A program made the position numbers and the translations under genes. From NCBI GenBank assembly GCA_025829515.1, contig GCA_025829515.1_4865.1: DNA of 64,000 bases; one strand, given 5' to 3'. The notes beneath the pieces are model-generated. The model saw only the letters and a list, made by a program, of their open reading frames with translations, was not told the DNA's origin and did no database searches. Positions within the stretch are counted from its first letter, which is position 1. The number at the start of each line of letters is the position of its first letter. Origin of the DNA: a phage. This document shows positions 1,640-17,100 of this stretch, piece by piece.

Positions 1640-1645
1640 GTTTTT

Positions 1646-1669: not shown

Positions 1670-1759
1670 CATTGTGTATAAACCCACAGTCGCTTAAACA
1701 CCAACTGTTCTTTAGTAACAGTTTTTGGTCACTTTAGTGTACTTTAAAGGAAATACCGA

Positions 1760-2998
1760 ATGTATAACGAATACGAATTAGTTTACCAGACACCGAAAGA
1801 AGCATTCTTTAATGCAGTAATTACTAACTCAATTGTACTGTTGGGAATGCAGTTCAGTGTTCGGAGTATGGCTTACAGCGATGTAACGTGGCAGGATTGT
1901 GCGTACCTGCCACAAAAGCTCTCAACCGTTGTCGAAAAGCGGCTGCTTGACAAAGGGGAAGTAAAGTGCCGTTTAGGCCACCACGTCTCTGACTTAGCGC
2001 CGTGGGTTGAGTTAACCATGACGTTCGAAGGGGATTCGCGGGTAGTTTACCTATCAGGTAATCAAAACATCGGACGCGCCATTGCTGAGGGTAACACAAT
2101 GTGGGTGCACTACATTCTTACTCTGCTGACCGGTAAACCGGTGTTCGAGTTAACACCTGACATGCCGGCACTAAGCGATAGCAATTGGTGGACTGGCGGA
2201 GAGCTGAATACAGGGTTTAATGAGAAATTACAAAACTTTAATTCAGAGCGACTCGATGTTGATGCGGAAGTGTTGGTGCAGCAGTTCCCCGAATTCACTG
2301 CGTACCAAATTACTACCGTATGGAATAGAGCGGTAAGCAAGCGCAGATTCTACACAAAAAATGCACCGCGTGAAGCAGCCAAACCTGTGGAAATTGACGA
2401 AGACACCAAAGAAGCACTGCGTGATCTAGCCACCATAGCCAATGATGGCAATACGATGTTCTGGACATCTGATGAAAACGCTAACCGTTATTTCGGTGAG
2501 ATGTTAGACGCCGATGTTTGGTCAGTAATGCCGATAGCAGAGCCTGGAAACCTTAAAGATTACTATAAGGTCGAAAAGGATGAGGTGGTTAATGAGAAAG
2601 TCGTCGCTCTTCTTGCTGTTTTCCGCGAAGTTATCCAGTCAGAAATACTGTTAAGCATCTATAAACGCAAGACCCCGGCCAGTGAAAATGACACGGCGTG
2701 GGTATTTGACTGTCGACCAACAAATACAACATCGCCCGCGTTCTGGATACAGGTGTCAGGAACGCTGCAGCGCGTGAACAGTTCCGTTGTTTCTCGCCTG
2801 CCGGATTCTGAAATGCGCTCCGTTGCCGAACCTGCTTATTTGATGTCGGCGAAGGCGGTACGGGACGCGTGGGGTACCAGCGAACTGAAACAGTGGCACT
2901 ACGACGCCATCATCAAATGGGGTGTTAACAATGGCTGGAAAGAAGTGACTAAGTACGGCCGTCAACTGTTGTTTGTCGCAGATTTGCGTTTACTGTAA
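1760..2998 (+). CDS. hypothetical protein (412 aa)
   Basis: Long ORF, AAAGGA RBS, followed by intrinsic terminator. Confidence 0.6.
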   Translation: MYNEYELVYQTPKEAFFNAVITNSIVLLGMQFSVRSMAYSDVTWQDCAYLPQKLSTVVEKRLLDKGEVKCRLGHHVSDLAPWVELTMTFEGDSRVVYLSGNQNIGRAIAEGNTMWVHYILTLLTGKPVFELTPDMPALSDSNWWTGGELNTGFNEKLQNFNSERLDVDAEVLVQQFPEFTAYQITTVWNRAVSKRRFYTKNAPREAAKPVEIDEDTKEALRDLATIANDGNTMFWTSDENANRYFGEMLDADVWSVMPIAEPGNLKDYYKVEKDEVVNEKVVALLAVFREVIQSEILLSIYKRKTPASENDTAWVFDCRPTNTTSPAFWIQVSGTLQRVNSSVVSRLPDSEMRSVAEPAYLMSAKAVRDAWGTSELKQWHYDAIIKWGVNNGWKEVTKYGRQLLFVADLRLL

Positions 2999-3008
2999 TC
3001 TCGTCATC

Positions 3009-3037
3009 GGGGGTCTTGTACCCCCTTCTTATTTTTT
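3009..3037 (+). terminator. rho-independent terminator
   Basis: GC hairpin gggggtcttgtaccccc followed by T-run. Confidence 0.6.
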
Positions 3038-3058
3038 AACCGTAAAGAGTATTTAACC

Positions 3059-3640
3059 ATGCCACAACCAATTATTGAACAACATGAAATGAACTACGAA
3101 GAACTGACCCGCCGCTATCGCGTGAAAGCCCCACGGGTAGTAGAAGGTTGCGAGAAATACAAAGAAGCAGACTTCGTGGTATTCCAACGCGAAGGTGTTC
3201 CGATGATGGTGTTCGTAAAACACGTCACCACCGATAACGACGCCCGTCTAGTGATGTTGTATAACGTAATGGCTACCGTACTAGATACCGATATTGGACT
3301 GTTACGTCGTTATAAATCATCCTACGAACAGAAAGCGAAGGTAGTTGCTTTTGACTTACCACGCACGGTACTAGTAGATGGTTCCCGTCCGGCTATTCTT
3401 CGTTTTACGAAAAGCGAAGACGACAGTAACCCAGCGCATATTGTTCAGCCACTAACGCTGTCGCAAGATACGTTACAGCAGAACGGCGGGATGGATTGGC
3501 TAAACGTCATGTTACCGGGCCTAGCTGAAGGTCAGGAATTGCATCTGGTTTGCTACACCCCATCCGTCGAGCACACCTATGCGCGTTACCTTACCGAAGA
3601 ACACGGTTTCCGTAACCACCGCGGTATTTACATTGCGTAA
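3059..3640 (+). CDS. hypothetical protein (193 aa)
   Basis: ORF in tightly packed rightward operon. Confidence 0.55.
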   Translation: MPQPIIEQHEMNYEELTRRYRVKAPRVVEGCEKYKEADFVVFQREGVPMMVFVKHVTTDNDARLVMLYNVMATVLDTDIGLLRRYKSSYEQKAKVVAFDLPRTVLVDGSRPAILRFTKSEDDSNPAHIVQPLTLSQDTLQQNGGMDWLNVMLPGLAEGQELHLVCYTPSVEHTYARYLTEEHGFRNHRGIYIA

Positions 3641-3649
3641 GGTGAATGT

Positions 3650-4213
3650 ATGTTCCGTTTACTAGAAATTCGAAACGATATCTGGCAAGAGCACATCCGC
3701 AACGATCCGGAGTGGGAAGGAGTTGAACGTGATTTACCGGATAACCCCGACCAGCTGCTGGTATTCCTTTATAGCGATAAGGCTAAACAGATCAAGGGGA
3801 TATTTGAACGTAAAACGACAAGCTTGTCGACCTTACTGAGCTGCATTTGCTGCGGCGTCAGTGAGCTTGATCCCAATCTATTCACCAACTATCTTGCGCG
3901 TAAAGTCCGTACACCGCTACTGGAGGTTACACTCCCGCCAGATATTCGTATCAGTAAAACCGTACCGACCGTTTTGCGTTTACAGGATGTGTCTGGTAGT
4001 AGCGACGACGGGGAAACAACGATTACCCTTTCCTCGTCAGAGAGTGAACTCGCAACCGAATCGTTTCTTAGCGAAGTCGAGGCCGGATTAAAGCAGGACG
4101 TAATCGTCTATAATCTCGGCGGTGTGCCCATTGATCCCATTTTACACTTCTTTGAAAGCCAAACCTGCCATCTCGTAGAAAGCTTAACATACCACTTTAA
4201 AGGAGCTTTATGA
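3650..4213 (+). CDS. hypothetical protein (187 aa)
   Basis: ORF, AAGGTGA RBS; stop overlaps next start (ATGA). Confidence 0.55.
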   Translation: MFRLLEIRNDIWQEHIRNDPEWEGVERDLPDNPDQLLVFLYSDKAKQIKGIFERKTTSLSTLLSCICCGVSELDPNLFTNYLARKVRTPLLEVTLPPDIRISKTVPTVLRLQDVSGSSDDGETTITLSSSESELATESFLSEVEAGLKQDVIVYNLGGVPIDPILHFFESQTCHLVESLTYHFKGAL

Positions 4214-4740
4214 TGAAACTCGAAGGCTACGTTGTTACTGATAAACCTTTTGCTGAAGCCAACCTGTCGCGTTCACAGGTTGTTTATAAAGACATCGATG
4301 TGCCTGCCGAAATCGTTAAAGCGAATCCCAGCTGGCTAATCAACCACGTTTCTTTGGAAATCACCAATCCGTTTATCAACGATCCAACCGACCCATTTGT
4401 CGACATGGGTAATTTCCGCGATATTCTTTCCCCACATCAATACCAGACAGTGGCACAGAAGAAAGGGAAGCTGCTCACTGAAACGAATGAGTGGGAGCGT
4501 ATCCAAGAGCGTCATCCTGAAAAGGGTTTGATGGAAATTTATCACCAACACCCTAAAGAGTTTGACAAATTACCTCTGTGGGCATCGGTGGCGTATAACT
4601 GCAGTGGGATATATGACCATCTGTTGCTGAGCGGATACGATGGCGCAATACACGCAGCCGAAGGCCCGCACACGCCGGTAACTGTTTATCACACATTTCA
4701 CCCAGCGCGCATCACTTTCATCGAAACGTTGAGTGTGTAG
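4210..4740 (+). CDS. hypothetical protein (176 aa)
   Basis: ORF, AAAGGAG RBS, followed by terminator. Confidence 0.55.
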   Translation: MMKLEGYVVTDKPFAEANLSRSQVVYKDIDVPAEIVKANPSWLINHVSLEITNPFINDPTDPFVDMGNFRDILSPHQYQTVAQKKGKLLTETNEWERIQERHPEKGLMEIYHQHPKEFDKLPLWASVAYNCSGIYDHLLLSGYDGAIHAAEGPHTPVTVYHTFHPARITFIETLSV

Positions 4741-4747
4741 TTTATCT

Positions 4748-4786
4748 CCAGTAACCACGAGGGTTACTGGAGTCCTCTTATTTTTT
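4748..4786 (+). terminator. rho-independent terminator
   Basis: Hairpin ccagtaaccacgagggttactgg followed by T-run. Confidence 0.6.
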
Positions 4787-4819
4787 ACACTTAACTCAAA
4801 TTAATTTGAGGTGTGGTAT

Positions 4820-5407
4820 ATGACAGAACGTATTTTACGACTGCAAGAGAACAGGTTAGAAGACCTGCACGTAATGCGTAGTCGTGGCTTGTTCCCAGTG
4901 GGGCTTGACGTAAGTGGGTTAATAACTTCTGCGCAGCACGGGGACAAGGTCATTACAATGCATTCACGTGGGAACGAAGTGGTCTCTGCGATTTTCATCG
5001 ATAAGGTTATTCCGGACTCGGAAAGTGGTAAGGCGGCGGGACACATCATTTACGAATACTTTCGCAGCATTCTATACGAGGAAAAGATAAACGTCAAAAC
5101 GTTTATGGAATACGCTAAGCGAAATAACTACATCGATGCGCGGCTGATGGTCACGGAAGGCACTCCAACTATAAACGGTAAAGTCCACCATCGTTTACTT
5201 GGAGCACAGTTGCCGAGACTAGGCGAGATACCAACGACGATAGAGCTGCACCAAAAAACAGATTGGCGACACAAAATCGAAGTGCTTCACAAGCTTTACG
5301 ATTTATCGATCGTTCAAATCAAACTGGTGGACTTTACGCCTGCAAATATGCAAATCGCTAAGCGCGCGTTGGGTTTTCGTATTCTTAACACAACCTTCAC
5401 ATTGTAA
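4820..5407 (+). CDS. hypothetical protein (195 aa)
   Basis: ORF; start moved to ATG 4820 which has GAGGTG RBS (track start 4811 is GTG). Confidence 0.55.
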   Translation: MTERILRLQENRLEDLHVMRSRGLFPVGLDVSGLITSAQHGDKVITMHSRGNEVVSAIFIDKVIPDSESGKAAGHIIYEYFRSILYEEKINVKTFMEYAKRNNYIDARLMVTEGTPTINGKVHHRLLGAQLPRLGEIPTTIELHQKTDWRHKIEVLHKLYDLSIVQIKLVDFTPANMQIAKRALGFRILNTTFTL

Positions 5408-5412
5408 AATAT

Positions 5413-5437
5413 CTCAGATATATATTACCTAGGTGAG
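5413..5437 (+). promoter_or_regulatory. putative phage promoter motif copy (ctcagatatatattacctaggtgag)
   Basis: Contains TATATTAC; near-identical to copy at 62824-62848. Confidence 0.5.
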
Positions 5438-5457
5438 AGTTAAGAGATTAACTCAAT

Positions 5458-5487
5458 GGCTACCTTCGGGTAGCCTATTCTTTTTTA
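5458..5487 (+). terminator. rho-independent terminator-like hairpin
   Basis: ggctaccttcgggtagcc hairpin + T-run; lies downstream of motif copy and upstream of gene 5512. Confidence 0.5.
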
Positions 5488-5511
5488 AACCAATCGACTA
5501 TAGAGCAAAAC

Positions 5512-5913
5512 ATGACTATCAAGAAGTTCTTACAAACAGTAGTAGTTCTGGCCGCATGTGGTATCGCAGCAACTTATGCTTTCGATAAGCCAGACGTGAC
5601 TGAATACACATCAGCTGATTCGGATTATGGCATTGCGCCGAATGAAAAACCGGAACTGATGCGTGAGGTCGAACAGTTACAAATCTACAGACTGACGGAC
5701 GGTAAGAACTGCACAGGGCTGGTTATCGCTGATAAGAAATTGAAAATGTATCAGCGGTTAATCGACATATCGTGCAATCAACCAAAAGTCACCTCGGTCA
5801 GTGTATCGCCACTGGAATTACCGAATTTGGTTGCTGTGAGCTTTTATCACAACGATGTGCTCGTCGGTCGCATCACCCTCAATCGTGGAGATATCAAAAA
5901 TGAAATGCAATAA
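5512..5913 (+). CDS. putative lipoprotein (133 aa)
   Basis: N-terminal signal peptide with lipobox-like LAAC; first of four consecutive signal-peptide ORFs. Confidence 0.5.
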   Translation: MTIKKFLQTVVVLAACGIAATYAFDKPDVTEYTSADSDYGIAPNEKPELMREVEQLQIYRLTDGKNCTGLVIADKKLKMYQRLIDISCNQPKVTSVSVSPLELPNLVAVSFYHNDVLVGRITLNRGDIKNEMQ

Positions 5914-6391
5914 CGTTAATCGCCACTTGGCCAAAGTGGTGCTTTTTACTGTGCTGTTGATGGCAGTTGTTGTTGGGCTACGGATTTCTAAGGCGCACGC
6001 TGACGAATTCAGCGGGTTCCAGGGCAGTATTAACGGCAGCATTCCAGCATATACCCGCACCATCAATCTTAATGATAAGCCGTTCTGGTGCAATGCGCGT
6101 AAGCTGCTTAAGAAACAGTGTCGTGTAGTTGACATATCCTTCAACGGACGTGTCGCTATCGTACACCGTCCGGGCGATAAAGATTGCCCAGGTGGTTGGT
6201 GGGGTGCAGTCGACCGTCACAACGGTGACGCGTTATGGCTTATCCCTAATCGTGATGAACTATCAGTGGAGAAAATTTGCAGCAAAGATTTCAGGGCCGG
6301 TTTTGTACAGCGACCGGATACCAAAACTCTGGCATCCATCGCTATGTACTACGGTATGGAAACCATCAAAACAATCGACTATTCAGAATAA
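5900..6391 (+). CDS. putative secreted protein (163 aa)
   Basis: Start placed at ATG 5900 (GGAG RBS); predicted signal peptide ending AHA; several Cys. Confidence 0.5.
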   Translation: MKCNNVNRHLAKVVLFTVLLMAVVVGLRISKAHADEFSGFQGSINGSIPAYTRTINLNDKPFWCNARKLLKKQCRVVDISFNGRVAIVHRPGDKDCPGGWWGAVDRHNGDALWLIPNRDELSVEKICSKDFRAGFVQRPDTKTLASIAMYYGMETIKTIDYSE

Positions 6392-6413
6392 CTCAAAAAA
6401 TTGAGGTACTATT

Positions 6414-6824
6414 ATGAAACATTTTTTATTACCAGTTTTACTTGCTACTCTGGCCATTAGCTTCTTCGCTCGCGCTGGAAGTATCGAGTTACCAAAAGTT
6501 GTTAACGATCACGAATACGGCGGGCCGTTCTGGTGCCAGAACTCTGACGTACAAGGCGGTAGCTGTCAGATCGTTGCGATGTCCGATAACAACCGTTACC
6601 TGTTAGTGAAAACGATGGGCGGTGTCGCATGTGGCGACCCTGAATACGGGGTTATTAACATGGCAACAGGTCAGGCCGAATCCATGAACTACAATGATAA
6701 CCAAGCCTGTAGCGGTGAAGCCGTTGCTGAGTTTACTCGCGACCCAGGTGATAATGCCCTGACGGTTATCATGTACGACCCTACGATTAAGAAAAACGTA
6801 GGCATCAATAAACTCGACTTTTAA
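6414..6824 (+). CDS. putative secreted Cys-containing protein (136 aa)
   Basis: Signal peptide MKHFLLPVLLATLAISFFARA; GAGG RBS. Confidence 0.5.
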   Translation: MKHFLLPVLLATLAISFFARAGSIELPKVVNDHEYGGPFWCQNSDVQGGSCQIVAMSDNNRYLLVKTMGGVACGDPEYGVINMATGQAESMNYNDNQACSGEAVAEFTRDPGDNALTVIMYDPTIKKNVGINKLDF

Positions 6825-6837
6825 GTAAGGAAACAAC

Positions 6838-7221
6838 ATGCGTGGATTTATGGGTATTATCGCGGCGGTGTTCTTGACCGCTTCTGCTTCAGCTACAACC
6901 AGCGTAGAAGATTTACTGCCAGGCACACCGTATCAGTACAACCCGCCTTCATTCGAAGTCTGTACTGGCGACGATGGCAGATGTGAAGAAGTCAGCCGTC
7001 ACGACGAGTATATCCTGGTCCACGCAAAGGGCGAGGAAACTTGTCCGGCTGGTTACTACTTCTTGTTGAACTCAAAGGCACAAGAGATTGTGCCGGTAGA
7101 GACAATAACGTGCGACCCGACGCTTCGCGCGTCGCTCGCTTACAATACGAAAACCAAACAACGCCTCCTGGTTATTGAACAGCAAGGGGTGGTGCGTGGT
7201 TCAGTAGCGCTCGACCAGTAA
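6838..7221 (+). CDS. putative secreted Cys-containing protein (127 aa)
   Basis: Signal peptide; AAGGA RBS. Confidence 0.5.
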   Translation: MRGFMGIIAAVFLTASASATTSVEDLLPGTPYQYNPPSFEVCTGDDGRCEEVSRHDEYILVHAKGEETCPAGYYFLLNSKAQEIVPVETITCDPTLRASLAYNTKTKQRLLVIEQQGVVRGSVALDQ

Positions 7222-7232
7222 CCGAAAAGTTT

Positions 7233-7255
7233 TCAGACAGATGTTATAACGTGAG
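7233..7255 (+). promoter_or_regulatory. putative phage promoter motif copy (tcagacagatgttataacgtgag)
   Basis: Intergenic copy of conserved motif upstream of gene 7351. Confidence 0.4.
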
Positions 7256-7350
7256 ATGACGACCCATCTCACTTTGGCCCTGCGGTGATTTCCCCAACAC
7301 TTAGCCGCAGGGTCCTTTTTAATCGACTATTACTCGTAAGGATTAAGCAA

Positions 7351-7851
7351 ATGAACATGAACATTCTCGACGATACCCGTTCTTCTTTCTTTACTCAGAT
7401 GAACGTCAATCCCGAACGTACCCGTGCCATTCTTTCCACTGGCTGGAAGTTAAAGCTGTTAGGCGAGTTAACCCTAAACCGCACCGACTGGCCAGAAGAA
7501 GCGACCGTATTGATTAACAGCATTCACAGCGAGTGGCTAGATGCTGCGTTGAATGCCCCACAACTACGTCCGTACTATCGGATGCTTCATGCGGGTTATG
7601 AAGTATACCGCAAAGGTTGGTACGCTGCAGCCACTTATTGCAAAACCCCTGAAGGTCGTGAAGACAACACTGTCGACCACGTATTAGTAAACAATTTCTG
7701 GGGCGACCAAATCGAAGTCTTACAACTTTCCACCGGTGACCGTATTCCGGCCTGTGAGTTATTCGAAACTAACGCACAAATGTACGAACCATATGCAATG
7801 ATTCGTGGCCGTAAGGTCCCAATCATTTCCCTTATGCATATGGGGCTGTAA
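7351..7851 (+). CDS. hypothetical protein (166 aa)
   Basis: Start placed at ATG 7351 with AAGGA RBS; followed by terminator. Confidence 0.5.
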   Translation: MNMNILDDTRSSFFTQMNVNPERTRAILSTGWKLKLLGELTLNRTDWPEEATVLINSIHSEWLDAALNAPQLRPYYRMLHAGYEVYRKGWYAAATYCKTPEGREDNTVDHVLVNNFWGDQIEVLQLSTGDRIPACELFETNAQMYEPYAMIRGRKVPIISLMHMGL

Positions 7852-7859
7852 ATACGAGA

Positions 7860-7889
7860 GGTAGCCTACGGGCTACCTTCTTTTTTTGT
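7860..7889 (+). terminator. rho-independent terminator
   Basis: ggtagcctacgggctacc hairpin + T-run. Confidence 0.6.
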
Positions 7890-7905
7890 TGAAGAAGGAT
7901 TAAAC

Positions 7906-8532
7906 ATGAACGAGATTACCCTGATTCGTTTCATCGACGACATGGTGACGTGTCAGAAAGCGAATCGTCAGGATACCAAACTACGTATCAATCTGATGGA
8001 AGAAGAGGTAGAAGGGTTTCTGGAATACCCGCGATTGGTGAAGTGGTTTAAAGAAGCACTGCCGCGTAGCTGGGAACAGCTCGAAGCGTGGTTTGCTCTA
8101 CCTATTGCAGAACGTAATCCCAATAATACGATCTTCACCGGAACTACTGCATTAGATTTGGCTGGTTCGGTGGAGCAACCTAAACGTTTAGTTTTCTTCT
8201 ACGTCAATGGCGATTCAATAATGGCTGATACAGTTAACTGGATTTCCGATGAGTTAACTGTAAACACCACTTTGGTCGGTAGCGCTGCTGATGCCTGGGT
8301 TGTTGGTCAGCACCAATCGCAACCGTACGAAGAAATCAAAACCGGTTATTTAATCCCGATATATCTCGACGGCGTGGCACCCGGTCGTAGTGCCGAACTG
8401 TTCAAATTCCTGCTTACTGAAACGTTAAAGGTTGTCGATTCTGATGCCGGACGTGCGTGGTACGAATTAACCAAAGAGCGCACCGATAGTTTTTGGGAAT
8501 CACTCGGACACCGTAAGTTTATTCCGCAATAA
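7906..8532 (+). CDS. hypothetical protein (208 aa)
   Basis: ORF with GAAGAAGGA RBS; followed by terminator. Confidence 0.55.
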   Translation: MNEITLIRFIDDMVTCQKANRQDTKLRINLMEEEVEGFLEYPRLVKWFKEALPRSWEQLEAWFALPIAERNPNNTIFTGTTALDLAGSVEQPKRLVFFYVNGDSIMADTVNWISDELTVNTTLVGSAADAWVVGQHQSQPYEEIKTGYLIPIYLDGVAPGRSAELFKFLLTETLKVVDSDAGRAWYELTKERTDSFWESLGHRKFIPQ

Positions 8533-8543
8533 CTCTCCTCTCT

Positions 8544-8575
8544 GGAACCCTTCGGGGTTCCATTTCTTCTTTTTT
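8544..8575 (+). terminator. rho-independent terminator
   Basis: ggaacccttcggggttcc hairpin + T-run. Confidence 0.6.
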
Positions 8576-8628
8576 ACGCATGACCTTTTGGATATGAACG
8601 ACTAATACTTTCTCATTAGAAGGCAAAC

Positions 8629-11139
8629 ATGCTCAAGGTCGAACGTATCATTTTGAAAGGATTTACCGGCATGGGGTTACATGAAATCGAAACGTTTGAT
8701 TTCACCCTTAAGTCAACCGTTACCATCATCCTCGGTGGCAACGGCTGCGGTAAAACAAGCCTCCTATCTGTTTTTCTCCCCTTAGCTCCAGCAAAATCTG
8801 AATTCCGTGAAGGTGGTTCTTACACTAACTACGCGTTAGTCGGGGACGACCGTCTTAAGTTTGAAGTCCTGCGACGTGGGTCTTCTTTGTCTTGTAGTAT
8901 TTTCAATATCACTAAAGGTGTCTCCATCGTAGACTCGGTAAACGCCAAAGTTTACAACTCCATGGTGGAGCAATTAACCGGAATCACCAAAGAAATCAAA
9001 GAGTTAATTAATGGTGAGACCTTATTAACTGACGCCACTACCGAAGTTCGTCGTAAATGGTTTACGTTAATGTCAGAATCTGATCTGACGTACGTTGTTG
9101 GTTGCTATCGACGTTTGCGTAAACTCGCTTCCAGTTTAAGTGGGGCCATTGAGCACACCGGCCGTAAAATCGGTGAGGCAAAAATGCGCGTGGTGGACGA
9201 TGAAGAAGATCGTGCACGTTTGGAAGTTCGTTTGAAAGAACTCGATGCTGAGCTTCAGGAATTAAACCGCACAATTGAAGCGAGACCCGGTTTAGATAAT
9301 GCCGTTTCGGTTGATAGTATCCGGAAACGCATTGCTTCGTTGCAACCGGCTGTAAAACTCATTATGGAACGTTATGGCGTTCTGCCTTCTGACGAACTGA
9401 TTAACGAGTTTCAAAGTCGTGTGGTTGCCTGGCGTGAGCAAGCTGCCTCTGCTGAAACTGAATGCAACATGTACAATAAAGAGTTGTCACAGCTACTGGA
9501 TGAGGAGTCGCGTCAAGCGTATCTGATGCGCAACCATACCGGTCTAAAACAAACAATCGACAGCTTAAAACAGGAACTGGCAACGTTCCAACAGAACTGG
9601 ATGTTCCCGGCTCTGTTTGAAGGTACCCGCATTGATGTGGATAGCATTCAGAACGCGTTAAACGATGCCTGTAACTGGAATTTACCGTTGTCCATGCATC
9701 TGGACCAGTTAAAGACAACAGATCGCCTGGGAGCGTTAGAGAAGCGTTTACAGGGTATGGATTTAACCTCTGCGGGTCTATCTGAAAAGCTGCAACGTTG
9801 TGAGAATGTGCTACACGGTTTATACCACGACCGTCAACACTTCTTAGAAACTGCAGAAGTTGATTGTCCACAGTGTAACCACCGTTTCCGTCCTGGGATT
9901 CGTAAGTCGTTACCTGAAATTGAAAAGGCCATCAACGATAATGAAGGTTGGAAGAAGCAGCTGAAAGACGAAATGGATAGTCTTTTGCGTGACCGCAAAG
10001 AGATTGAAGAGGACGTCCGTAGCTTACGTACGATTCGCGAAATCGTCATGTCGTATTCCAACCATCCTGTTGTCGGTTTGTTTTTCCGTAAACTGCAGGA
10101 GCTGGATATCTTCACCACGGCGCGGGATCGTTATGGTGCCATTGCACGTGCCTTTACCGAAGAGTTAGATTCGGCCATGATGTATCTGCGTCAATCAGCG
10201 AAGCTTGCAACAGCGGAACGGGAATGGCAAGAGGCTGTTGCCGCAGTAGGTAATGTTGATGGTGCGCTGAGCCAGAAAATTGAACATATCCGTTCACAAC
10301 TGGACGGGGCTAACCGTCGACTGATAGAATACCGCAGACAAGCCAATGAGCTGGAACGCGAAACCACCCAACTGCAACAAACCAAAGAAGCAATCGAACG
10401 TTTCCAAAAAGGCTACGAACATCTGGTATCGGAAATGAACATCTCCGTTAACAACGTCGTGGTTCGCGAGTTGTTAAACCGACGCGAAGCGAAGCTCGAT
10501 GCGTACACTTCCGCTCGTGAACGGTTTCGTCAAATGGAAGGGGCTATTGCACGTTTAGCGGAATTGGAAAAAGAGCAAGCTGAGTTGCTCAAAGAACACC
10601 ATCATGCCAGATTGATTATCAATGCCGTCTCACCCGAAAAAGGATTATTGCGTCGTTACTTTTATGCTGCGATTACCCGCATCATGGATTTAATGAATCG
10701 GTATATCGAAATGGTGTGGGCATATCCGATGCAGGTTATTCCATGCGATCTAACCGACGGGGATTTGGATTATACTTTCCCGGTGCGATTAAAAGACCAT
10801 GAAGAACTGGTGCCGGATGTGAAGAAAGGTTCAAAAGCACAGCGTATCATTTTCAACATGATGTTTCGTTTAACGGCGTATAAAGCACTTGGTTTACAAA
10901 ATTATCCTTTGTTATTGGATGAACCATCTGAAGGCATGGATGAAGAACACAAAAACCGATTAGTTAACTTCATTAAATCGTTGGCGTTGTCGGGAGAGTT
11001 TTCTCAATTGCTGGTCGTTTCGCATGAAGCGGAAGTTCATTCTAAACTTAACGAAGCCACCTACTGTGTCGTAGAACCAGAAGGTGTAACGCTTCCACCG
11101 GTGTATAACGAAGGGGTAATAATCAAATATGCATCATAA
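8629..11139 (+). CDS. Rad50/SbcC-like SMC-family ATPase (836 aa)
   Basis: N-terminal Walker A ILGGNGCGKTSLL, long central coiled-coil-like region with CPQC zinc-hook-like motif, C-terminal Walker B LLLDEPSEGMDE. Confidence 0.75.
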   Translation: MLKVERIILKGFTGMGLHEIETFDFTLKSTVTIILGGNGCGKTSLLSVFLPLAPAKSEFREGGSYTNYALVGDDRLKFEVLRRGSSLSCSIFNITKGVSIVDSVNAKVYNSMVEQLTGITKEIKELINGETLLTDATTEVRRKWFTLMSESDLTYVVGCYRRLRKLASSLSGAIEHTGRKIGEAKMRVVDDEEDRARLEVRLKELDAELQELNRTIEARPGLDNAVSVDSIRKRIASLQPAVKLIMERYGVLPSDELINEFQSRVVAWREQAASAETECNMYNKELSQLLDEESRQAYLMRNHTGLKQTIDSLKQELATFQQNWMFPALFEGTRIDVDSIQNALNDACNWNLPLSMHLDQLKTTDRLGALEKRLQGMDLTSAGLSEKLQRCENVLHGLYHDRQHFLETAEVDCPQCNHRFRPGIRKSLPEIEKAINDNEGWKKQLKDEMDSLLRDRKEIEEDVRSLRTIREIVMSYSNHPVVGLFFRKLQELDIFTTARDRYGAIARAFTEELDSAMMYLRQSAKLATAEREWQEAVAAVGNVDGALSQKIEHIRSQLDGANRRLIEYRRQANELERETTQLQQTKEAIERFQKGYEHLVSEMNISVNNVVVRELLNRREAKLDAYTSARERFRQMEGAIARLAELEKEQAELLKEHHHARLIINAVSPEKGLLRRYFYAAITRIMDLMNRYIEMVWAYPMQVIPCDLTDGDLDYTFPVRLKDHEELVPDVKKGSKAQRIIFNMMFRLTAYKALGLQNYPLLLDEPSEGMDEEHKNRLVNFIKSLALSGEFSQLLVVSHEAEVHSKLNEATYCVVEPEGVTLPPVYNEGVIIKYAS

Positions 11140-11320
11140 AGGTTGGCGCTTATGGGCTTGGTGGGGTTTTCAGTTCCTTCAGTTTGTTGTGATGGTACTG
11201 TACCTCTCCTTTTGTGCAACCGTAGTGGTTATCGCTGCGGTCGTTTATTTAGCTGCTGCTCTTAAAGAACGTCTGTTCGACACGCGTTGTGAGTGGCGAG
11301 ATATAGGGGAACGGACATGA
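11129..11320 (+). CDS. small hydrophobic/membrane protein (63 aa)
   Basis: Trp-rich hydrophobic ORF; first of five overlapping small membrane-type ORFs. Confidence 0.35.
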   Translation: MHHKGWRLWAWWGFQFLQFVVMVLYLSFCATVVVIAAVVYLAAALKERLFDTRCEWRDIGERT

Positions 11321-11421
11321 TTGAAGGTATCGTATTAACCGGTATTGCACTGTGGTTGATTCGTGGTGCCTGGGGTTGGATTATCCGCACGAAAGGATGG
11401 GCGTTCCATGGCAACACGTAA
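11317..11421 (+). CDS. small membrane peptide (34 aa)
   Basis: ATGA overlap with preceding ORF; hydrophobic MIEGIVLTGIALWLIRGAWGW. Confidence 0.35.
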   Translation: MIEGIVLTGIALWLIRGAWGWIIRTKGWAFHGNT

Positions 11422-11611
11422 ACCACGTCGCTTAAAATCTTGGGCGGTTGTGATAATGCACACTGTAGTGTTGCTGGGTATTTTCTTGTCTCGTGCCACG
11501 CCTGCCTTTTGGGGCTTAGTTGTTTTGGTGTTCTTAGAAGGGGTTTACTTCGGTAATCTGTGGAGCAAGCCCCCGCGTTTAAGGGACCCGGCTTATGACA
11601 GTCGTGAATAG
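11408..11611 (+). CDS. small membrane protein (67 aa)
   Basis: AAGGA RBS; N-terminal basic stretch then TM segment. Confidence 0.4.
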   Translation: MATRKPRRLKSWAVVIMHTVVLLGIFLSRATPAFWGLVVLVFLEGVYFGNLWSKPPRLRDPAYDSRE

Positions 11612-11726
11612 TGTCAACGCGGCGATGATTGCAACGGGTGCGTATGACGGTGCCACATGGACAGATGTTGGTATCACGCTTATCATTTGCGCAATCGGAG
11701 CGTTTGTAGCAACATGGTTATTTTAG
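11595..11726 (+). CDS. small membrane peptide (43 aa)
   Basis: Overlapping start; hydrophobic ...GITLIICAIGAFVATWLF. Confidence 0.35.
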   Translation: MTVVNSVNAAMIATGAYDGATWTDVGITLIICAIGAFVATWLF

Positions 11727-11821
11727 TGAAATGGGTTGGGTGTATCGTCTGTAGCCTGATACTAGGAGCGGGCGCATACGCCCTAGGCGCAATCCTTGCA
11801 TTGACGCAAGGTTGGTTTTAA
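11726..11821 (+). CDS. small membrane peptide (31 aa, GTG start)
   Basis: GTG overlapping previous stop by 1 nt; hydrophobic CIVCSLILGAGAYALGAILAL. Confidence 0.3.
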   Translation: MKWVGCIVCSLILGAGAYALGAILALTQGWF

Positions 11822-11839
11822 CAGGAGGGTAATTACGAA

Positions 11840-12118
11840 GTGGGAGAAACGTCATGTAACAGTGAAACAGTCTCTGATCCCGTGGTCGTGGGTTCAGGGG
11901 CGGCCGAGCCAACCCGGCGTATCGTTCTTTCGGGCGTGGGGATGGCTATAGGGTCTTCAAAGAACCTTCTAGCAGACATCGCGGAAGTCTGCGGGCCGGA
12001 TGATTTTGCAGTTTCACGTACAGTCGGGGAAGACTGGCGTGGTAATCAGAAGCGCCATGAGCGAATGTGGCGACGGAAGGTTACCTCAGCATCGCAGCGT
12101 TTTCAACGACGTTGTTGA
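11840..12118 (+). CDS. hypothetical protein (92 aa, GTG start)
   Basis: Strong AGGAGGG RBS before GTG; coding status uncertain. Confidence 0.3.
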   Translation: MGETSCNSETVSDPVVVGSGAAEPTRRIVLSGVGMAIGSSKNLLADIAEVCGPDDFAVSRTVGEDWRGNQKRHERMWRRKVTSASQRFQRRC

Positions 12119-12237
12119 TCAAAGACACGGTTCCGATAGAGAACTGGTCTTTACCTGCAGCGGTATACACCGCTAAGCTTTACCGGTAAACTTAAGAAAA
12201 CACAAACGCAATTCTTCGTTACTCGCTTTCATCGCAG

Positions 12238-12753
12238 GTGAAAGCTCACTTAGGAATTCAGCTCATGGCCGAAATTGTCATTCTTTCCTCATCCTCAGAT
12301 TTAACGGAAGCACAAAATAAACAGCTGTTGGGGCTGCATTATAAATTTCTGAACCACCAACGTACCATACTCCATATCGAAAAAGGTGAGATTCCGAACC
12401 TCACTCTGGAGAAACTGTTGGCGGGGAACCGTGCCTGCGTTGCTCTGGAAGGGGGCACCCCTGTTGGTTACTGTTTGTATCGCGTAATCGCTGGGGTTCT
12501 GAAGATTCGTACGATGTTCGTGTCCGAAATGGCACGCCGTCGCAAAACGATGACGCAGATTTTTGATGCGCTTGATGTGAATGAGCAGTTCACCAGTGCG
12601 CATGGGGGAATATACGCTTGCCAGGAAGCTGGTATTGCGTTCTTTACCGCTCGCGGTTTTGACAAGACCGTCTCTACAGACGGACAATGGCTTGAATTTA
12701 AGAAGCAGGTTCCTGCGGAAGCAGATGAACCTTTAAGGACTGCGGTAGCATAG
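12238..12753 (+). CDS. putative GNAT-family acetyltransferase-like protein
   Basis: Weak resemblance to GNAT acetyl-CoA binding region; start uncertain (GTG 12238 or ATG 12265). Confidence 0.35.
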   Translation: MKAHLGIQLMAEIVILSSSSDLTEAQNKQLLGLHYKFLNHQRTILHIEKGEIPNLTLEKLLAGNRACVALEGGTPVGYCLYRVIAGVLKIRTMFVSEMARRRKTMTQIFDALDVNEQFTSAHGGIYACQEAGIAFFTARGFDKTVSTDGQWLEFKKQVPAEADEPLRTAVA

Positions 12754-12823
12754 TCCTGTTTTAGCACTCCTTACGATTATGCCTCACTATGAGTGGGGTA
12801 TTTTTACGCGAGGAGTGCTATTT

Positions 12824-13042
12824 ATGTTTCACCGTCCTGGGTTTTCAGCTTTAAACACCGATGTCTGTTGGGCTGAGTACGAGCGGGTGAAGGAGTTCTT
12901 ACCCGTAAATCCTAAACACATCAACGTGGGTACTATCGGGCGTGTTGCGTTCGATGATACTCCGCTGAGTACGTGTATTAAAGCAGCGCTTGGTACGCTG
13001 CCTGAGCCTCACCACCACGACTGGGAGGCAACTTTACCCTAA
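12824..13042 (+). CDS. hypothetical protein (72 aa)
   Basis: GAGGAG RBS upstream of ATG 12824. Confidence 0.35.
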   Translation: MFHRPGFSALNTDVCWAEYERVKEFLPVNPKHINVGTIGRVAFDDTPLSTCIKAALGTLPEPHHHDWEATLP

Positions 13043-13053
13043 GGAGCATTAAA

Positions 13054-13476
13054 ATGGTTACCGCTATTCGCGAAACAAAATCACTATACGATCATTTATC
13101 AGAAGAAGAAACAGCCTTATTCTACGACCTGTTACCTGAAACCAAAGCAAACGTTCAGTGGTGGTTACGTTTAGCGCTACGTGATAAAGTTGGGGAAACG
13201 CCGGTTAGTATTCTCGCGCACACGTTGGACATGACGCCCATGATTGAAATCGCGATTACCCGCCCTAAATTCTGGCGGCCTGGTATGGTGCGTGAGGCGT
13301 ATCTACTCCAACGCTTAGGTGTTGACCCGGAGAAGTGTTGGCGTAAGATGGACGACCATCGCTACCGTGAAGAAATTACGAATAGCCTCAACACTATGTT
13401 GGCAATGAAACGGCTCGGTATCGAACACGAAGGTTTCGAGTCAGCGGTAAAAGCCTGGGTGAAAAGGAATAGCTAA
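13054..13476 (+). CDS. hypothetical protein (140 aa)
   Basis: AAGGAG RBS; ORF. Confidence 0.55.
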   Translation: MVTAIRETKSLYDHLSEEETALFYDLLPETKANVQWWLRLALRDKVGETPVSILAHTLDMTPMIEIAITRPKFWRPGMVREAYLLQRLGVDPEKCWRKMDDHRYREEITNSLNTMLAMKRLGIEHEGFESAVKAWVKRNS

Positions 13477-13725
13477 ATGCAAAAAACAATCATCGGAATA
13501 ACGGTTGGTTCTTTCTGTGGCTTCCCTACCCCACAAACAGAACCCCAATATTTGGGCGCAGGCAAACCTGACCCGGAAGTCCGTAAGTTGCGCGAAGAAG
13601 CAAAAGCCAGAGTTCTTACTGAGCTGGAATCGTTGCTTCAGTCTCCGGTTATTTCACAATGGGGTATGGCAATAGATGTCACTCGAACTGATCGACGAGG
13701 CCGTTATCTCCCACGACTTGTTTAA
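13477..13725 (+). CDS. hypothetical protein (82 aa)
   Basis: AAGGA RBS; abuts previous stop. Confidence 0.45.
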   Translation: MQKTIIGITVGSFCGFPTPQTEPQYLGAGKPDPEVRKLREEAKARVLTELESLLQSPVISQWGMAIDVTRTDRRGRYLPRLV

Positions 13726-14176
13726 CGCGCCTGAGCGCTTCAAGGTCGTTACAGTTAACTGCGTTGGTGCAATGGGAAGGGGCATTGCCTTGGCGTGCCG
13801 AGAACGCTTCCCATCGCTTTATAATGACTATCGCCAGAAATGCCGTAAAGAGCAAATCGTTATCGGTGAGGTCTATTGTTATCCTGAGGAAGGGGTAATA
13901 CTCCTTCCTACTAAAACCCATTTTCGCTATAAATCGCAGATTTACTATGTCACGTCCGGCATTGATGCGCTGGCGCGACTAGGGGAAGACTTAGAAGGAG
14001 GGATTGCGATACCACCCCTAGGGATGGCTAACGGTTGGTTACGTTACCATGAGCGATTGGAAATCTTTATACACTTACAGAAACGACTACAGCACACGGA
14101 GCAGACTTATCGATTCTATTTACCGGACACCTTGCTGAGGGAAGCAGAGAAAATCATCCCAAATAGTTTCAAATAG
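13676..14176 (+). CDS. macro-domain (ADP-ribose binding/processing) protein (166 aa)
   Basis: VVTVNCVGAMGRGIALAC and GIAIPPLGMANGW resemble macro-domain Gly-rich loop and second conserved loop. Confidence 0.55.
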   Translation: MSLELIDEAVISHDLFNAPERFKVVTVNCVGAMGRGIALACRERFPSLYNDYRQKCRKEQIVIGEVYCYPEEGVILLPTKTHFRYKSQIYYVTSGIDALARLGEDLEGGIAIPPLGMANGWLRYHERLEIFIHLQKRLQHTEQTYRFYLPDTLLREAEKIIPNSFK

Positions 14177-14191
14177 ATATTATCATCAGGG
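14171..14191 (+). promoter_or_regulatory. putative phage promoter motif copy (aaatagatattatcatcaggg)
   Basis: Conserved motif copy upstream of gene 14276. Confidence 0.45.
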
Positions 14192-14275
14192 CACATTACA
14201 AAGGAGCACAATGCCGTCCGCGCCGTCTTCCCGGATTGGGAACGGAAAAGTATAAATCCGTTTGGAGATACATCC

Positions 14276-14998
14276 ATGTTTCGCACCATTTTATTTCTTC
14301 TGGTAGCAATGACTACGTTCAACAGCAACGCTTCTTACCAGACCACCAGTAACAAACACCAAAAAGAATTCGTCCTTATCCAGGACCAGTTCAATGAGAT
14401 TAAACCTCTCATCGTCACCGCATCTCGAAAACAAGGCGTACATGCCGGGATGCTCGCGACCACCATTTATCGTGAATCCCGTTTTAATAAAAACGTGGGT
14501 AAGAATAAATCGAGCAGTGCTAGTAGTGTTGTCCAAATGACGACAGGCACTAAACGCTCCATGATACGTCTGTATGGGAAACAACTTAACATCCCAAAGA
14601 ATGCGGACCTTAATAAACCGAAGTATGCTGTACAGCTTGCTGCCGTTTACATGAAACACATCGAGGATCATCTGACAAAACAACTCAAACGCAAGCCGAG
14701 CACAGCCGAAATCGCTTTAGGCTACCGCTTCGGTGAGGGTGCTGCTGTTGCGATGATTAAAAAGAAATCACCGGTCGGGAAACGCTGGATGGCCAGCTAC
14801 CGAAAAGACGCAGCATTCTACGGTGCGAAAATGACACCACCGAAAGCTGAAACACGTCAGCTTGCTTTTGCGAAGGAAGACCGCGACCAACGCGTCGCTG
14901 AGCTTCAGAAAATCTGGGATACGCTGTACACCAAAATATCACCTGCGGCCGGTACATTACTGGCAAATAACACTATCATGAAAGGAGCATTGCTTTGA
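14276..14998 (+). CDS. secreted lytic transglycosylase-like protein (240 aa)
   Basis: N-terminal signal peptide; TIYRESRFN...SSVVQMTTGT resembles SLT catalytic E-S and GLMQ motifs. Confidence 0.55.
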   Translation: MFRTILFLLVAMTTFNSNASYQTTSNKHQKEFVLIQDQFNEIKPLIVTASRKQGVHAGMLATTIYRESRFNKNVGKNKSSSASSVVQMTTGTKRSMIRLYGKQLNIPKNADLNKPKYAVQLAAVYMKHIEDHLTKQLKRKPSTAEIALGYRFGEGAAVAMIKKKSPVGKRWMASYRKDAAFYGAKMTPPKAETRQLAFAKEDRDQRVAELQKIWDTLYTKISPAAGTLLANNTIMKGALL

Positions 14999-15588
14999 CA
15001 CTCGTAACACGCCCCTGGTATCCAGGTCTTAAAACAGCCGCACAAATCACCGCCAAAGACGTTTACGAACTGATTCGCGCGGGTGCGGAACACGTTCAAA
15101 CCAATCCGAACTACGTTGAGCGTCCTATCGGTGAAGTCGATGGGGAAGCTGTCGAAGCACCTGTCTACGTTGAGTACGGCGAATGGTTCGCAGAGAACCA
15201 CGGTTTCTACGACGCGTTAAACGCGGCGTTTGGTGATGACGAAGACGAAGGTATCGAATTCGACTGGAACGTTAATCTGGCGCTGATGTGGATTTGTGGT
15301 TTACGTCCAGCAATTAACGAAACCGAAGCAGGCTTCGTGCTGACGTGGCGACAGTCGGCGGGTTACGATAAAGAACTCGACTTCAAACAGGCGTATATGG
15401 ATGTGTCGATTGCACTGCAGAAACTGTTCTTCGGCGATCGTGCTTTCTGCCAGCTCAGCTGGTTGACCATCCTGGAAAAACTGGCAACGTGCCACAAACT
15501 GTGGCGAGCAGAAGATGCCCCAGAACATCTTTTCGTGCTCGAATATGCAGTGGTACCGAACCAGCCGTTCTTTGAGGCCGAAGCGTAA
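14995..15588 (+). CDS. hypothetical acidic protein (197 aa, TTG start)
   Basis: AAAGGAG RBS 6 nt upstream of TTG; followed by terminator. Confidence 0.5.
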   Translation: MTLVTRPWYPGLKTAAQITAKDVYELIRAGAEHVQTNPNYVERPIGEVDGEAVEAPVYVEYGEWFAENHGFYDALNAAFGDDEDEGIEFDWNVNLALMWICGLRPAINETEAGFVLTWRQSAGYDKELDFKQAYMDVSIALQKLFFGDRAFCQLSWLTILEKLATCHKLWRAEDAPEHLFVLEYAVVPNQPFFEAEA

Positions 15589-15593
15589 TTAAC

Positions 15594-15626
15594 GGTCAGA
15601 CCTTCGGGTCTGACCACCTTTTATTT
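15594..15626 (+). terminator. rho-independent terminator
   Basis: ggtcagaccttcgggtctgacc hairpin + T-run. Confidence 0.6.
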
Positions 15627-15639
15627 AATTCTTGGGTGT

Positions 15640-15906
15640 GTGTTCGTGAAACGTTTAATAAATTTTCTCTACTGGATGGAGAAACGCTATAGCCACAACA
15701 TTCCGATGATGTATAGTTTGTTATTCTCCACGGTAATGTTGGTAATCGGTGCGATCGTCGCACATCTGATGGAACTCACGTCCCCATGGGCGCAACTCTT
15801 TCTTACCATCTGGATGTTGTTCTCAGGCTACCACATACGTGGTTTCATAACCCGATTCTTTCGCTGGCGGAGTACCTGGCACGTCTTTAATTCCGACCGT
15901 AACTAG
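15640..15906 (+). CDS. small membrane protein, holin-like (88 aa)
   Basis: Two predicted TM segments, basic C-terminus; weak RBS, GTG start. Confidence 0.35.
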   Translation: MFVKRLINFLYWMEKRYSHNIPMMYSLLFSTVMLVIGAIVAHLMELTSPWAQLFLTIWMLFSGYHIRGFITRFFRWRSTWHVFNSDRN

Positions 15907-15966
15907 TTTTTTACAGCAGTAACTAATCATCTGAAAATACCATTGACTTTTATAAGGACTATTAAC

Positions 15967-17100
15967 ATGCAATTTCCAATTTCCGTAATCGAAGATATGG
16001 CTCGTGTAGTACGTGACCGTGCGTATGTGCTTAGCTACGAAGGTATTCGTGCATATTCAGAAGCTCTGATTGCACAACACGTCACTGGCACCGGTGTTAT
16101 CAACCCGGATCTTTACAATGCGCTGGTCGATAACAATGTGGAGGCTTATCTGCCGCTGCCGCACCTGCGTAATAAGTTGTGCCTTTCTTCTCAAACTCTT
16201 CAGTTTGATAACCTGCCGCCACTGAAATATTCGCCAGATGACCGTTGGGGAAGTATGCTGGGCGTAGCTTTCCAAAATTGCCACGCGCCTTATAACTGGT
16301 CTATTCTCGTTGAAGGTGTTGATGGCGTCTGGTATGCCATTGCACATTCTGACGGATTCTTCTTCGAACCAGGTGAGTTGATTAAACCAGTAAGTGCCCC
16401 ACAAGGCCGTGCTAAGGTTGGGCATTGTTACATTGAATTGACTCATGTCCAGTGGACTATCGAAGACTGGCGTGCTGCCTCCGTTATCTTCGGTGACGGT
16501 AAACCACACTCAGTTACTTTCGAGCGTTGTGAAGCAGAGCATGTTGAAGAGACTGACAATGACGAAGTGGGAGATCGTTACGCGCCGCTGGAAGAGTGCC
16601 GTAACATCGCGAACATCGACTGGGTGAAAGTCTTTACGGCCAACCCCGGTTTCCGTGGCCAGACTATCAACCCCGGCGAAGTAACCTGGGAAGGTTTCGT
16701 ACAACTCGCAGATAAACTCGGTTATGACGTGTGGGATTACACCTACAAACGTCCATACCCGAATGCGTCGGAAGATGAAGACCACGATGAAATCATTCTG
16801 GAAAACCTGGCTGATATCGAAAACGTGTTCATCGATGATGAAATCTTCATCACCCTCGGCATTGAGCGTCCGAAATCAACCGCATATCCGGTATCGGTTG
16901 CCAACGTTATTCAGGAACTGGGCAAGATGCAGGAGCAGACCGTCGAAGTGAAAATCGACGAAGAGCAAATGCATATCGCTGCACAGGTACAGAAAACTCT
17001 GAACCTGGATAAGCTGTACGCGGAAATCCGCAAGCAGCCGAAAAAGAAACGTACTGCTGCCACAATCAAAGCAATGATGCGTGAAATTATCGGCAAGTAA
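15967..17100 (+). CDS. hypothetical protein (377 aa)
   Basis: ATG 15967 with AAGGA RBS; followed by bidirectional terminator. Confidence 0.6.
   Translation: MQFPISVIEDMARVVRDRAYVLSYEGIRAYSEALIAQHVTGTGVINPDLYNALVDNNVEAYLPLPHLRNKLCLSSQTLQFDNLPPLKYSPDDRWGSMLGVAFQNCHAPYNWSILVEGVDGVWYAIAHSDGFFFEPGELIKPVSAPQGRAKVGHCYIELTHVQWTIEDWRAASVIFGDGKPHSVTFERCEAEHVEETDNDEVGDRYAPLEECRNIANIDWVKVFTANPGFRGQTINPGEVTWEGFVQLADKLGYDVWDYTYKRPYPNASEDEDHDEIILENLADIENVFIDDEIFITLGIERPKSTAYPVSVANVIQELGKMQEQTVEVKIDEEQMHIAAQVQKTLNLDKLYAEIRKQPKKKRTAATIKAMMREIIGK

Follow-up and report, generated by a model that had tools for sequence, protein, structure and literature searches.

A conserved array of five overlapping membrane microprotein genes behind the SbcC-like gene of SPN3US-like jumbo phages

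Five very small, mutually overlapping genes, predicted to encode membrane proteins, directly follow the SbcC/Rad50-like gene in a 64,000-nucleotide stretch of phage DNA (contig GCA_025829515.1_4865.1 of GenBank assembly GCA_025829515.1), referred to here as the window. The window derives from an SPN3US-like jumbo phage of the genus Seoulvirus, within the nucleus-forming Chimalliviridae, as indicated by DNA identities of 93-98% to Seoulvirus records spanning most of the query. For the region itself, identity to SPN3US-like jumbo phages of Salmonella and E. coli is 95-98%. Judged by comparison of related phages, the genes are real and conserved, and from their arrangement we infer a role for the encoded proteins. 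They probably form a co-translated inner-membrane microprotein complex, which is made together with SbcC and acts on the envelope during infection.

The five open reading frames (ORFs) reported by the first-pass annotation at 11129-11821 (+), with 63, 34, 67, 43 and 31 codons and with ATGA, ATGG..TAA and TAGTG junctions, are all present. The run begins, as described there, within the end of the SbcC-like gene. The stop codon of this gene lies at 11137-11139, and ORF1 starts 11 nt inside it, the SbcC-like gene being the upstream member of the coupled unit. The unit and the gene that closes it are as follows (aa, amino acids; E values refer to profile matches).

8629-11139, + strand: SbcC/Rad50-like ATPase, 836 aa, orthologue of SPN3US gp186 (phrog_77, E=1.5e-96; weak SMC_N/AAA matches)
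11129-11320, + strand: ORF1 (o1), 63 aa, equal to gp187 (phrog_16515, E=2.6e-29)
11317-11421, + strand: ORF2 (o2), 34 aa, ATGA overlap with ORF1 (phrog_13448, E=1.1e-8)
11408-11611, + strand: ORF3 (o3), 67 aa, equal to gp188 (phrog_18173, E=1.4e-36)
11595-11726, + strand: ORF4 (o4), 43 aa, equal to gp189 (phrog_29196, E=1.8e-29)
11714-11821, + strand: ORF5 (o5), 35 aa from ATG 11714, or 31 aa from GTG 11726 (assigned from start choice and pN/pS, see below)
11840-12118, + strand: o6, soluble protein of 92 aa whose C-terminal tail is strongly basic (phrog_15402, E=1e-12)

Every gene flanking the array is on the same strand, within a series of 23 consecutive + strand genes from 1322 to 17100. The 693 nt of the array are tiled completely (100%) by + strand ORFs of 30 or more codons; in shuffled sequences the mean is 62%, and 0.4% of them get to 95%. 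When only hydrophobic ORFs are counted, the coverage is 94%, whereas shuffling gives 17% on average.

The existence of two diverged Seoulvirus lineages, SPAsTU/STsAS and Erwinia phage pEa_SNUABM_29, allowed us to follow the drift of the frames. SPAsTU shares 68.7% nucleotide identity with the window by BLAST (66.8% in a global alignment) and has all five ORFs intact; pEa_SNUABM_29 has lost o3 and retains the other four intact. The synonymous rate dS is near saturation in these comparisons (0.9-1.8). The ratio of non-synonymous to synonymous substitution rates (dN/dS) was 0.28-0.29 for o1, 0.09-0.10 for o2, 0.18 for o3 and 0.23-0.36 for o5. For o4 it was 0.10 in the comparison with SPAsTU, that with pEa_SNUABM_29 being saturated in dS. 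The SbcC and GNAT genes on either side had values of 0.05-0.12. The best conserved of the five is o2, with 82% amino acid identity to both SPAsTU and pEa_SNUABM_29.

The signal is specific to the proposed frames. In the same nucleotide alignments, the pooled ratio of non-synonymous to synonymous differences per site (pN/pS) was 0.35-0.37 in these frames, versus 1.0-1.5 in the two shifted ones, and for o5 the values were 0.38-0.51 in frame and 0.75-1.44 shifted. The indels relative to SPAsTU measure 6, 3 and 6 nt, plus a single nucleotide at the o1/o2 junction that alters only the length of the overlap. Relative to SPN3US there are 47 substitutions, distributed 12/3/32 by codon position. Drift that ignores the frames, named in the first-pass annotation as the sign of spurious ORFs, is thus not what dN/dS, frame-specific pN/pS, in-frame indels and third-position bias indicate. 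From these comparisons we conclude that all five ORFs are protein-coding, the case being weakest, though still positive, for o5.

It is very improbable that the ORFs are chance products of a non-coding spacer or of an RNA element. Single ORFs of 31-43 codons do commonly arise randomly, and a low pN/pS is seen, as expected, also in the antisense frame with the same wobble positions, yet this frame has stop codons. Purifying selection restricted to the proposed frames at saturated dS, the codon-position bias, the in-frame indels, the rarity of such tiling in shuffles and the synteny across four genera (see below) all argue against chance. An RNA element could be suspected from a hairpin followed by UUUU at the end of o5 (11794-11811, +), which is seen again in other genera and has one pair that looks compensatory. 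We rejected this hairpin as an attenuator. Synonymous recodings were at least as stable in a fraction of 0.30-0.42 in four of eight phages, and of 0.012-0.15 in the other four. Since recoded versions are equally stable in half of the phages, the hairpin is largely a by-product of the codons for the C-terminal ALTQGWF of o5.

The array has the architecture expected for translational coupling. Behind the SbcC-like gene the micro-ORFs are packed with overlaps of 4-17 nt, and every one has a Shine-Dalgarno (SD) of weak to moderate strength. For each of o1-o4 the SD-like motif lies within the preceding gene, with duplex energies of -5.2 to -8.0 kcal/mol (GAAGGGG, -8.0 kcal/mol, for o1). The SD of o6, AGGAGGG, is strong (-10.8 kcal/mol). 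SPAsTU keeps overlaps of 1-23 nt between neighbouring genes, and so does Parshik, save for a 5-nt gap before o5. In every genus examined, the start of o1 overlaps or abuts the stop of SbcC. For o5, the anti-SD duplex is stronger at ATG 11714 (-6.4 kcal/mol) than at GTG 11726 (-2.2 kcal/mol), and all homologues have a longer N-terminus. Together with the annotation of phage Lh1B, this makes it more likely that o5 begins at ATG 11714 and has 35 codons. Thus, of the translationally coupled set proposed by the first-pass annotation, the overlapping, SD-preceded layout is kept across genera, and coupling itself is the likely consequence suggested by this layout.

All products have the composition of small membrane proteins, with one or two hydrophobic helices apiece, Trp making up 4.5-11.8% of residues, Kyte-Doolittle hydropathy maxima of 1.7-2.7, Trp-rich interfaces and small-xxx-small motifs. 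The o1 protein starts with a Trp-rich N-terminus, continues with a stretch of some 38 hydrophobic residues and ends in a charged tail. AlphaFold2 models it as one long helix (residues 4-62, pLDDT, the predicted local distance difference test, 87). Given the basic residues that flank the stretch on both sides, it could equally plausibly be a hairpin with both ends inside. In o2, a short N-terminal hydrophobic segment is followed by an interfacial tail rich in Trp, Arg and Lys (RGAWGWIIRTKGWAF). The o3 protein combines a polybasic N-terminus, a hairpin of two transmembrane (TM) helices and a conserved tail, PPLLRDPAYDxRE; its AlphaFold2 model is a hairpin of H12-28 and H32-53 with a mean pLDDT of 76. 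No basic residue occurs in o4, whose C-terminal TM segment ends in WLF, and o5 is single-pass with the nearly invariant C-terminus ALTQGWF. Purifying selection, hydropathy maxima and AlphaFold2 helices therefore bear out the initial view of small membrane proteins encoded by real genes. The initial description of one hydrophobic helix each fails for o3, a two-helix hairpin. No similarity was detectable among the five ORFs that would indicate paralogy, including o4 as a duplicate of o5.

Wider conservation, which we traced via the SbcC gene into other genera, was one of the checks that the first-pass annotation called for, and it revealed a syntenic array in four genera. The order o1-o2-o3-o5-o6 is kept in Seoulvirus, Erskinevirus (Asesino and loci L007 and L008), Machinavirus (Parshik, pSal-SNUABM-04 and pEa_SNUABM_8) and Wellingtonvirus (Kwan and loci L029 and L034), where o3 is longer. 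The core array was found in loci L007-L012, L022, L024, L029 and L034. All four genera have orthologues of o1 and o2. By contrast, o4 is confined to Seoulvirus (three lineages examined), and pEa_SNUABM_29 lacks o3. In the alignment, the most conserved features are W.WI(I/L)+.KGWAF in o2, the PPLLRDPAYDxRE tail of o3 and the ALTQGWF C-terminus of o5.

Outside these four genera the slot is filled differently or is empty. Derbicusvirus phages (CR5 and EarlPhillipIV) have other small TM ORFs in the same place. The phiKZ-like phage KEN19, Goslar, Ea35-70 (Agricanvirus) and PS119XW have the SbcC orthologue, with no TM gene directly after it. Loci of the Wellingtonvirus type carry an additional 46-aa TM ORF after o2. 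Between o1 and o2 they have an inserted soluble ORF of 128 aa, which belongs to phrog_1365 (unknown function) and contains HEAVH, an HExxH motif. Neither this insert nor the CR5 neighbours provided a clue to function. The insert lies at the following positions (basis: phrog_1365).

L012, 3505-3891: 128-aa HExxH ORF
L029, 642-1028: 128-aa HExxH ORF
L034, 5071-5457 (reverse complement): 128-aa HExxH ORF

Database searches likewise point to clade-restricted families. An exhaustive HMMER search with o3 of 1.84e9 representative proteins gave three hits, two fragmentary SPFM-phage proteins and an unattributed 70-aa protein, P0011, with 47% identity. Single queries with o3 and o1 against 5.8 billion proteins returned near-identical relatives only. 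In IMG/VR, apart from one chance match, a degenerate DNA pattern for ALTQGWF-stop hit nothing but syntenic loci of this group of phages. No family in Pfam, NCBIfam or PADLOC was matched by the micro-ORF products. By profile match, o1-o4 belong to the four PHROG families of unknown function listed above (16515, 13448, 18173 and 29196); o5 had no significant PHROG match (best E=0.016).

The micro-ORFs are not new, being mostly in databases as hypothetical proteins, with one of them (gp187) in the literature, and the array is not a new kind of system. ORF1, ORF3 and ORF4 correspond to SPN3US_0187-0189 (gp187-189) with 90-95% identity. The first-pass view that such micro-ORFs are usually missed by annotation is half true: three of the five are called in SPN3US (o1, o3 and o4), four in SEGD1, which adds o2, four in Lh1B, which adds o5 from the ATG equivalent to 11714, and all five in SPAsTU (MLDJOKPK_00249-00253). 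The absence of o2 and o5 from the SPN3US reference is an annotation gap to be fixed. Several SPFM assemblies (LR535903-LR535917) align here in 11-13 fragments, which leads to truncated "hypothetical proteins", and Lh1B (OK428535) has ambiguous bases and an apparent frameshift at the C-terminus of o3. Both look like sequence-quality faults rather than biology.

Transcription signals place the array in a defined block. Transcription blocks in this part of the window are bounded by three strong intrinsic terminators, whose tetraloops are UUCG (or ACGG) and whose U-tracts are long. Terminator-like sites are more frequent there than expected (24 versus 9.1 in 7-16 kb).

7858-7879, + strand: strong intrinsic terminator
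8543-8562, + strand: strong intrinsic terminator with a UUCG tetraloop, shortly before SbcC; bounds the block on its 5' side
15594-15615, + strand: strong intrinsic terminator with a UUCG loop; bounds the block on its 3' side

The + strand block between the last two contains, in order, SbcC, the array, o6, a GNAT acetyltransferase, a mini-ORF with an EF-Tu G-motif, a macro-domain protein, an SLT endolysin and a 197-aa protein. An AT-rich motif, AGAyAkATrTyAy, following an A-rich run, occurs in six copies, all intergenic on the + strand, compared with 0.07 expected from shuffles.

1648, 5416, 7235, 23264, 30828 and 62827, + strand, intergenic: AGAyAkATrTyAy motif

The motif resembles the early promoters of phiKZ and looks like the early-promoter class of this phage. 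No copy lies directly upstream of SbcC. The nearest, at 7235, is separated from it by two terminators, a weak indication that neither SbcC nor the array belongs to the early genes. A scan for sigma-70 promoters was uninformative (10 sites versus 10.6 expected).

How might such a complex act? Ribosomes that finish SbcC, and then each upstream ORF, would re-initiate on the next ORF, so that the microproteins would be made together, when SbcC is made. They would insert side by side into the inner membrane as a hetero-oligomer. A soluble partner such as o6 would dock on their conserved tails in the cytoplasm, namely the charged helix in o1 and PPLLRDPAYDxRE in o3. The array would then condition the host inner membrane in the manner of T4 Imm, blocking the entry of DNA from a secondary phage or another membrane-borne host process, rather than forming a lysis hole. 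By analogy with T4, we consider such exclusion or envelope conditioning a tentative assignment, possible rather than probable, and marginally favoured over lysis timing or SbcCD tethering.

Several observations lean towards an Imm-like role. The array is attached to SbcC and not to the endolysin. Its turnover between lineages, with o4 gained, o3 lost and another TM set in CR5 and EarlPhillipIV, is typical of genes that face hosts or competitors. No early-promoter-like motif directly precedes SbcC. Finally, T4 imm is itself embedded among DNA-replication and other DNA-metabolism genes, away from the lysis genes. Its 83-aa product, which confers superinfection immunity, resembles o3 in size and as a small inner-membrane protein with two TM helices and a short charged C-terminal tail. 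Unlike the array, imm is a single gene, and no exclusion phenotype is known for SPN3US-type phages.

Several points weigh against this interpretation. None of the microproteins resembles T4 Imm, Sp or another characterised exclusion protein in sequence; in a blastp comparison of T4 Imm with them, the best match was o2 with E=0.031 over 15 residues, followed by o3 with E=1.8, neither being significant. Gene overlap is ubiquitous in phages and no proof of a common function, and it is conjecture that a hetero-oligomer forms and that o6 docks on it. We found no expression, localisation or phenotype data for the array. In addition, the phiKZ-type holin and regulator have no homologue in this group, which leaves some probability for a lysis role of the array.

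The position behind SbcC also invites a more direct link to this protein. SPN3US gp186 is essential, as shown with an amber mutant (Thomas et al. 2016, PMC5105663). In the same study (PMC5105663, 2016), gp187, encoded downstream of SbcC, was noted as a 63-aa protein with a positive TMHMM prediction and was likened to T4 gp47.1, the proposed membrane anchor of gp46/47. Accordingly, gp187 (o1), perhaps with others of the array, might tether the essential SbcC/SbcD nuclease to the inner membrane. The contact between the o1 start and the SbcC stop in every genus examined fits this, as does T4 47.1, a gene for a 46-aa predicted membrane protein that overlaps gene 47 by 4 nt. In both phages a tiny predicted membrane protein gene thus overlaps an SbcCD subunit gene, here by 11 nt with SbcC. 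However, gp47.1 is encoded upstream of the Mre11-like gene and the micro-ORFs downstream of the Rad50-like gene, the two show no similarity, and the anchoring role of gp47.1 is itself a proposal.

Further observations make the tether quite unlikely. The phages phiKZ, Goslar, Ea35-70 and PS119XW have an SbcC orthologue without a TM gene directly after it, and five different microproteins exceed what a tether needs. SbcD (gp27) is encoded far from gp186 (PMC5105663). The biology of the family points the same way. In Chimalliviridae, replication and recombination are thought to take place inside a protein shell away from the membrane, so the DNA transactions of a nucleus-forming phage would be expected at a distance from the proposed anchor.

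The first gene downstream of the array is o6, which closes the array and follows it in the five genera having one. Its C-terminus is conserved and very basic (EDWRGNQKRHERMWR.KVTSAS.RFQRRC), and its pN/pS is 0.37-0.50 in frame versus 1.2-1.8 shifted. Because these values back the frame at 11840-12118, SPN3US_0190 (41 codons in another frame, 12067-12189) is probably a mis-annotation of o6. It is possible that o6 is a cytoplasmic partner of the array. Further on, between the GNAT acetyltransferase and the macro-domain gene, the mini-ORF at 12779-13042 (+; likely start ATG 12826) carries an EF-Tu G1-like motif, HINVGTIGRV. Its counterparts in Parshik, pSal-SNUABM-04 and pEa_SNUABM_8 are named "putative elongation factor Tu/GTPase", and with fewer than 110 aa it is far too short for a GTPase. 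The window also seems to be without the 519-nt SPN3US_0193 (about 13042-13054, versus SPN3US 173301-173819). The SPN3US coordinate offset shifts by 511 nt between array and endolysin, and SPAsTU has a 543-nt gene there.

The GNAT acetyltransferase, the EF-Tu G-motif fragment and the macro-domain protein resemble host-manipulation or anti-defence genes. The array could belong with them, its products being small TM binders that inhibit a transporter, a protease, cell division or a membrane-bound defence effector. We regard such a host-takeover or anti-defence role as a serious possibility, although still short of probable. It agrees with the clade restriction and fast turnover of the families, and most small phage membrane proteins in PHROGs are without an assigned function. 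On the other side, nothing specific supports it, and neither PADLOC nor NCBIfam gave a match.

A holin/antiholin function had been suggested in the first-pass annotation, and here the position and content of the nearby lysis genes are relevant.

14276-14998, + strand: SLT-domain endolysin, orthologue of SPN3US_0198 (Pfam SLT, E=2.2e-6; phrog_4067, E=6e-58)
15640-15906, + strand: 88-aa protein with two TM helices and a basic C-terminal tail, just after the endolysin block and its terminator

The endolysin, annotated as "putative endolysin" in relatives, has a Sec-type signal peptide (N-terminus MFRTILFLLVAMTTFNSNA|SY). Because of this signal peptide, it would need a depolarising trigger rather than a large hole. 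One or more microproteins might therefore act as pinholin or antiholin, depolarising the membrane and so activating the exported endolysin, while o6 would play the part of T4 RIII or phiKZ gp143 as a regulator in the cytoplasm. In favour of such a lysis-timing module, the endolysin lies within the same terminator-bounded + strand block as the array. In addition, o1 and o3 share the generic holin layout (at least one TM helix and a charged, hydrophilic C-terminus), a criterion that is not specific. The size and topology of o3 also fit class II holins. In common with the pinholin S68 of phage 21 and with two-component holins, o3 has a length of 60-70 aa, a pair of TM helices and a charged C-terminus, and a secreted endolysin is encoded in the same region of the genome.

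The array differs from class II holins in that it is not beside the endolysin, lacks a dual-start motif and matches no holin family, and in that o3 has been lost from one lineage, pEa_SNUABM_29, where it is dispensable. A distance of 2.5 kb and six ORFs of 82-171 aa (o6, GNAT, the EF-Tu-like fragment, the macro domain and others), none of them lysis genes, separate array and endolysin. Searches with o1-o5 returned no holin in Pfam, NCBIfam or the annotated PHROGs at E<=1. Spanin features were also missing, the alignments showing no conserved Cys or lipobox and no periplasmic domain beyond a few residues; the sole lipobox-like string, WVGC in the o5 of the window, is not conserved. Furthermore, coupling to SbcC implies synthesis with replication and recombination genes, not with late genes.

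A better-placed holin candidate is plausibly the 88-aa two-TM protein directly after the endolysin block. A 41% identical orthologue occupies the same position in SPAsTU, and a Wellingtonvirus-like contig (L028) has two TM ORFs there, of 105 and 88 aa. The window copy matches no PHROG family. We therefore do not favour the holin/antiholin reading, and consider a lysis-timing role of the array unlikely, though not negligible.

We also compared the window with phiKZ, which is from the same family and likewise has an SLT-type endolysin. Its lysis cassette consists of an i-spanin, an o-spanin, the class IIIB holin gp142, the regulator gp143 and the endolysin gp144 (PMC12894885). With its large cytoplasmic domain, the phiKZ holin is unlike these microproteins. 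A tblastn search of the window with gp141, gp141.1, gp142 and gp143 gave nothing below E=0.4, and homologues of gp143 appear in 69 phage records, of Pseudomonas phages only. The only match of the cassette in the window is the SLT domain. Here gp144 matches the SLT domain (45431-45913) of a 2373-aa protein (44759-51880, -) better than the endolysin described above; we rejected this protein as an endolysin, as it is of the virion type. A region with a weak RuvC-like match at 31-35 kb was likewise dismissed as a lysis locus, since no lysis genes are found there.

More speculatively, o1-o2-o3-o5 with o6 might constitute an unrecognised multi-subunit membrane machine of enterobacterial nucleus-forming jumbo phages, its stoichiometry set by coupling to SbcC. 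One example would be a multi-component exclusion system of a new type; another would be a novel holin/antiholin complex standing in for a class IIIB holin and regulator of the phiKZ type, which are missing from this branch. We think this improbable, yet worth bearing in mind.

Genetic work on the nucleus-forming jumbo phages of enterobacteria uses SPN3US as its model, and counterparts of the phiKZ holin, regulator and spanins are not detectable here. The array also offers a clean example of how genes of 34-35 codons can be validated through comparative genomics alone. For these phages, a conserved membrane cassette of five microproteins provides cheap, concrete candidates for lysis timing, superinfection exclusion or the localisation of SbcCD.

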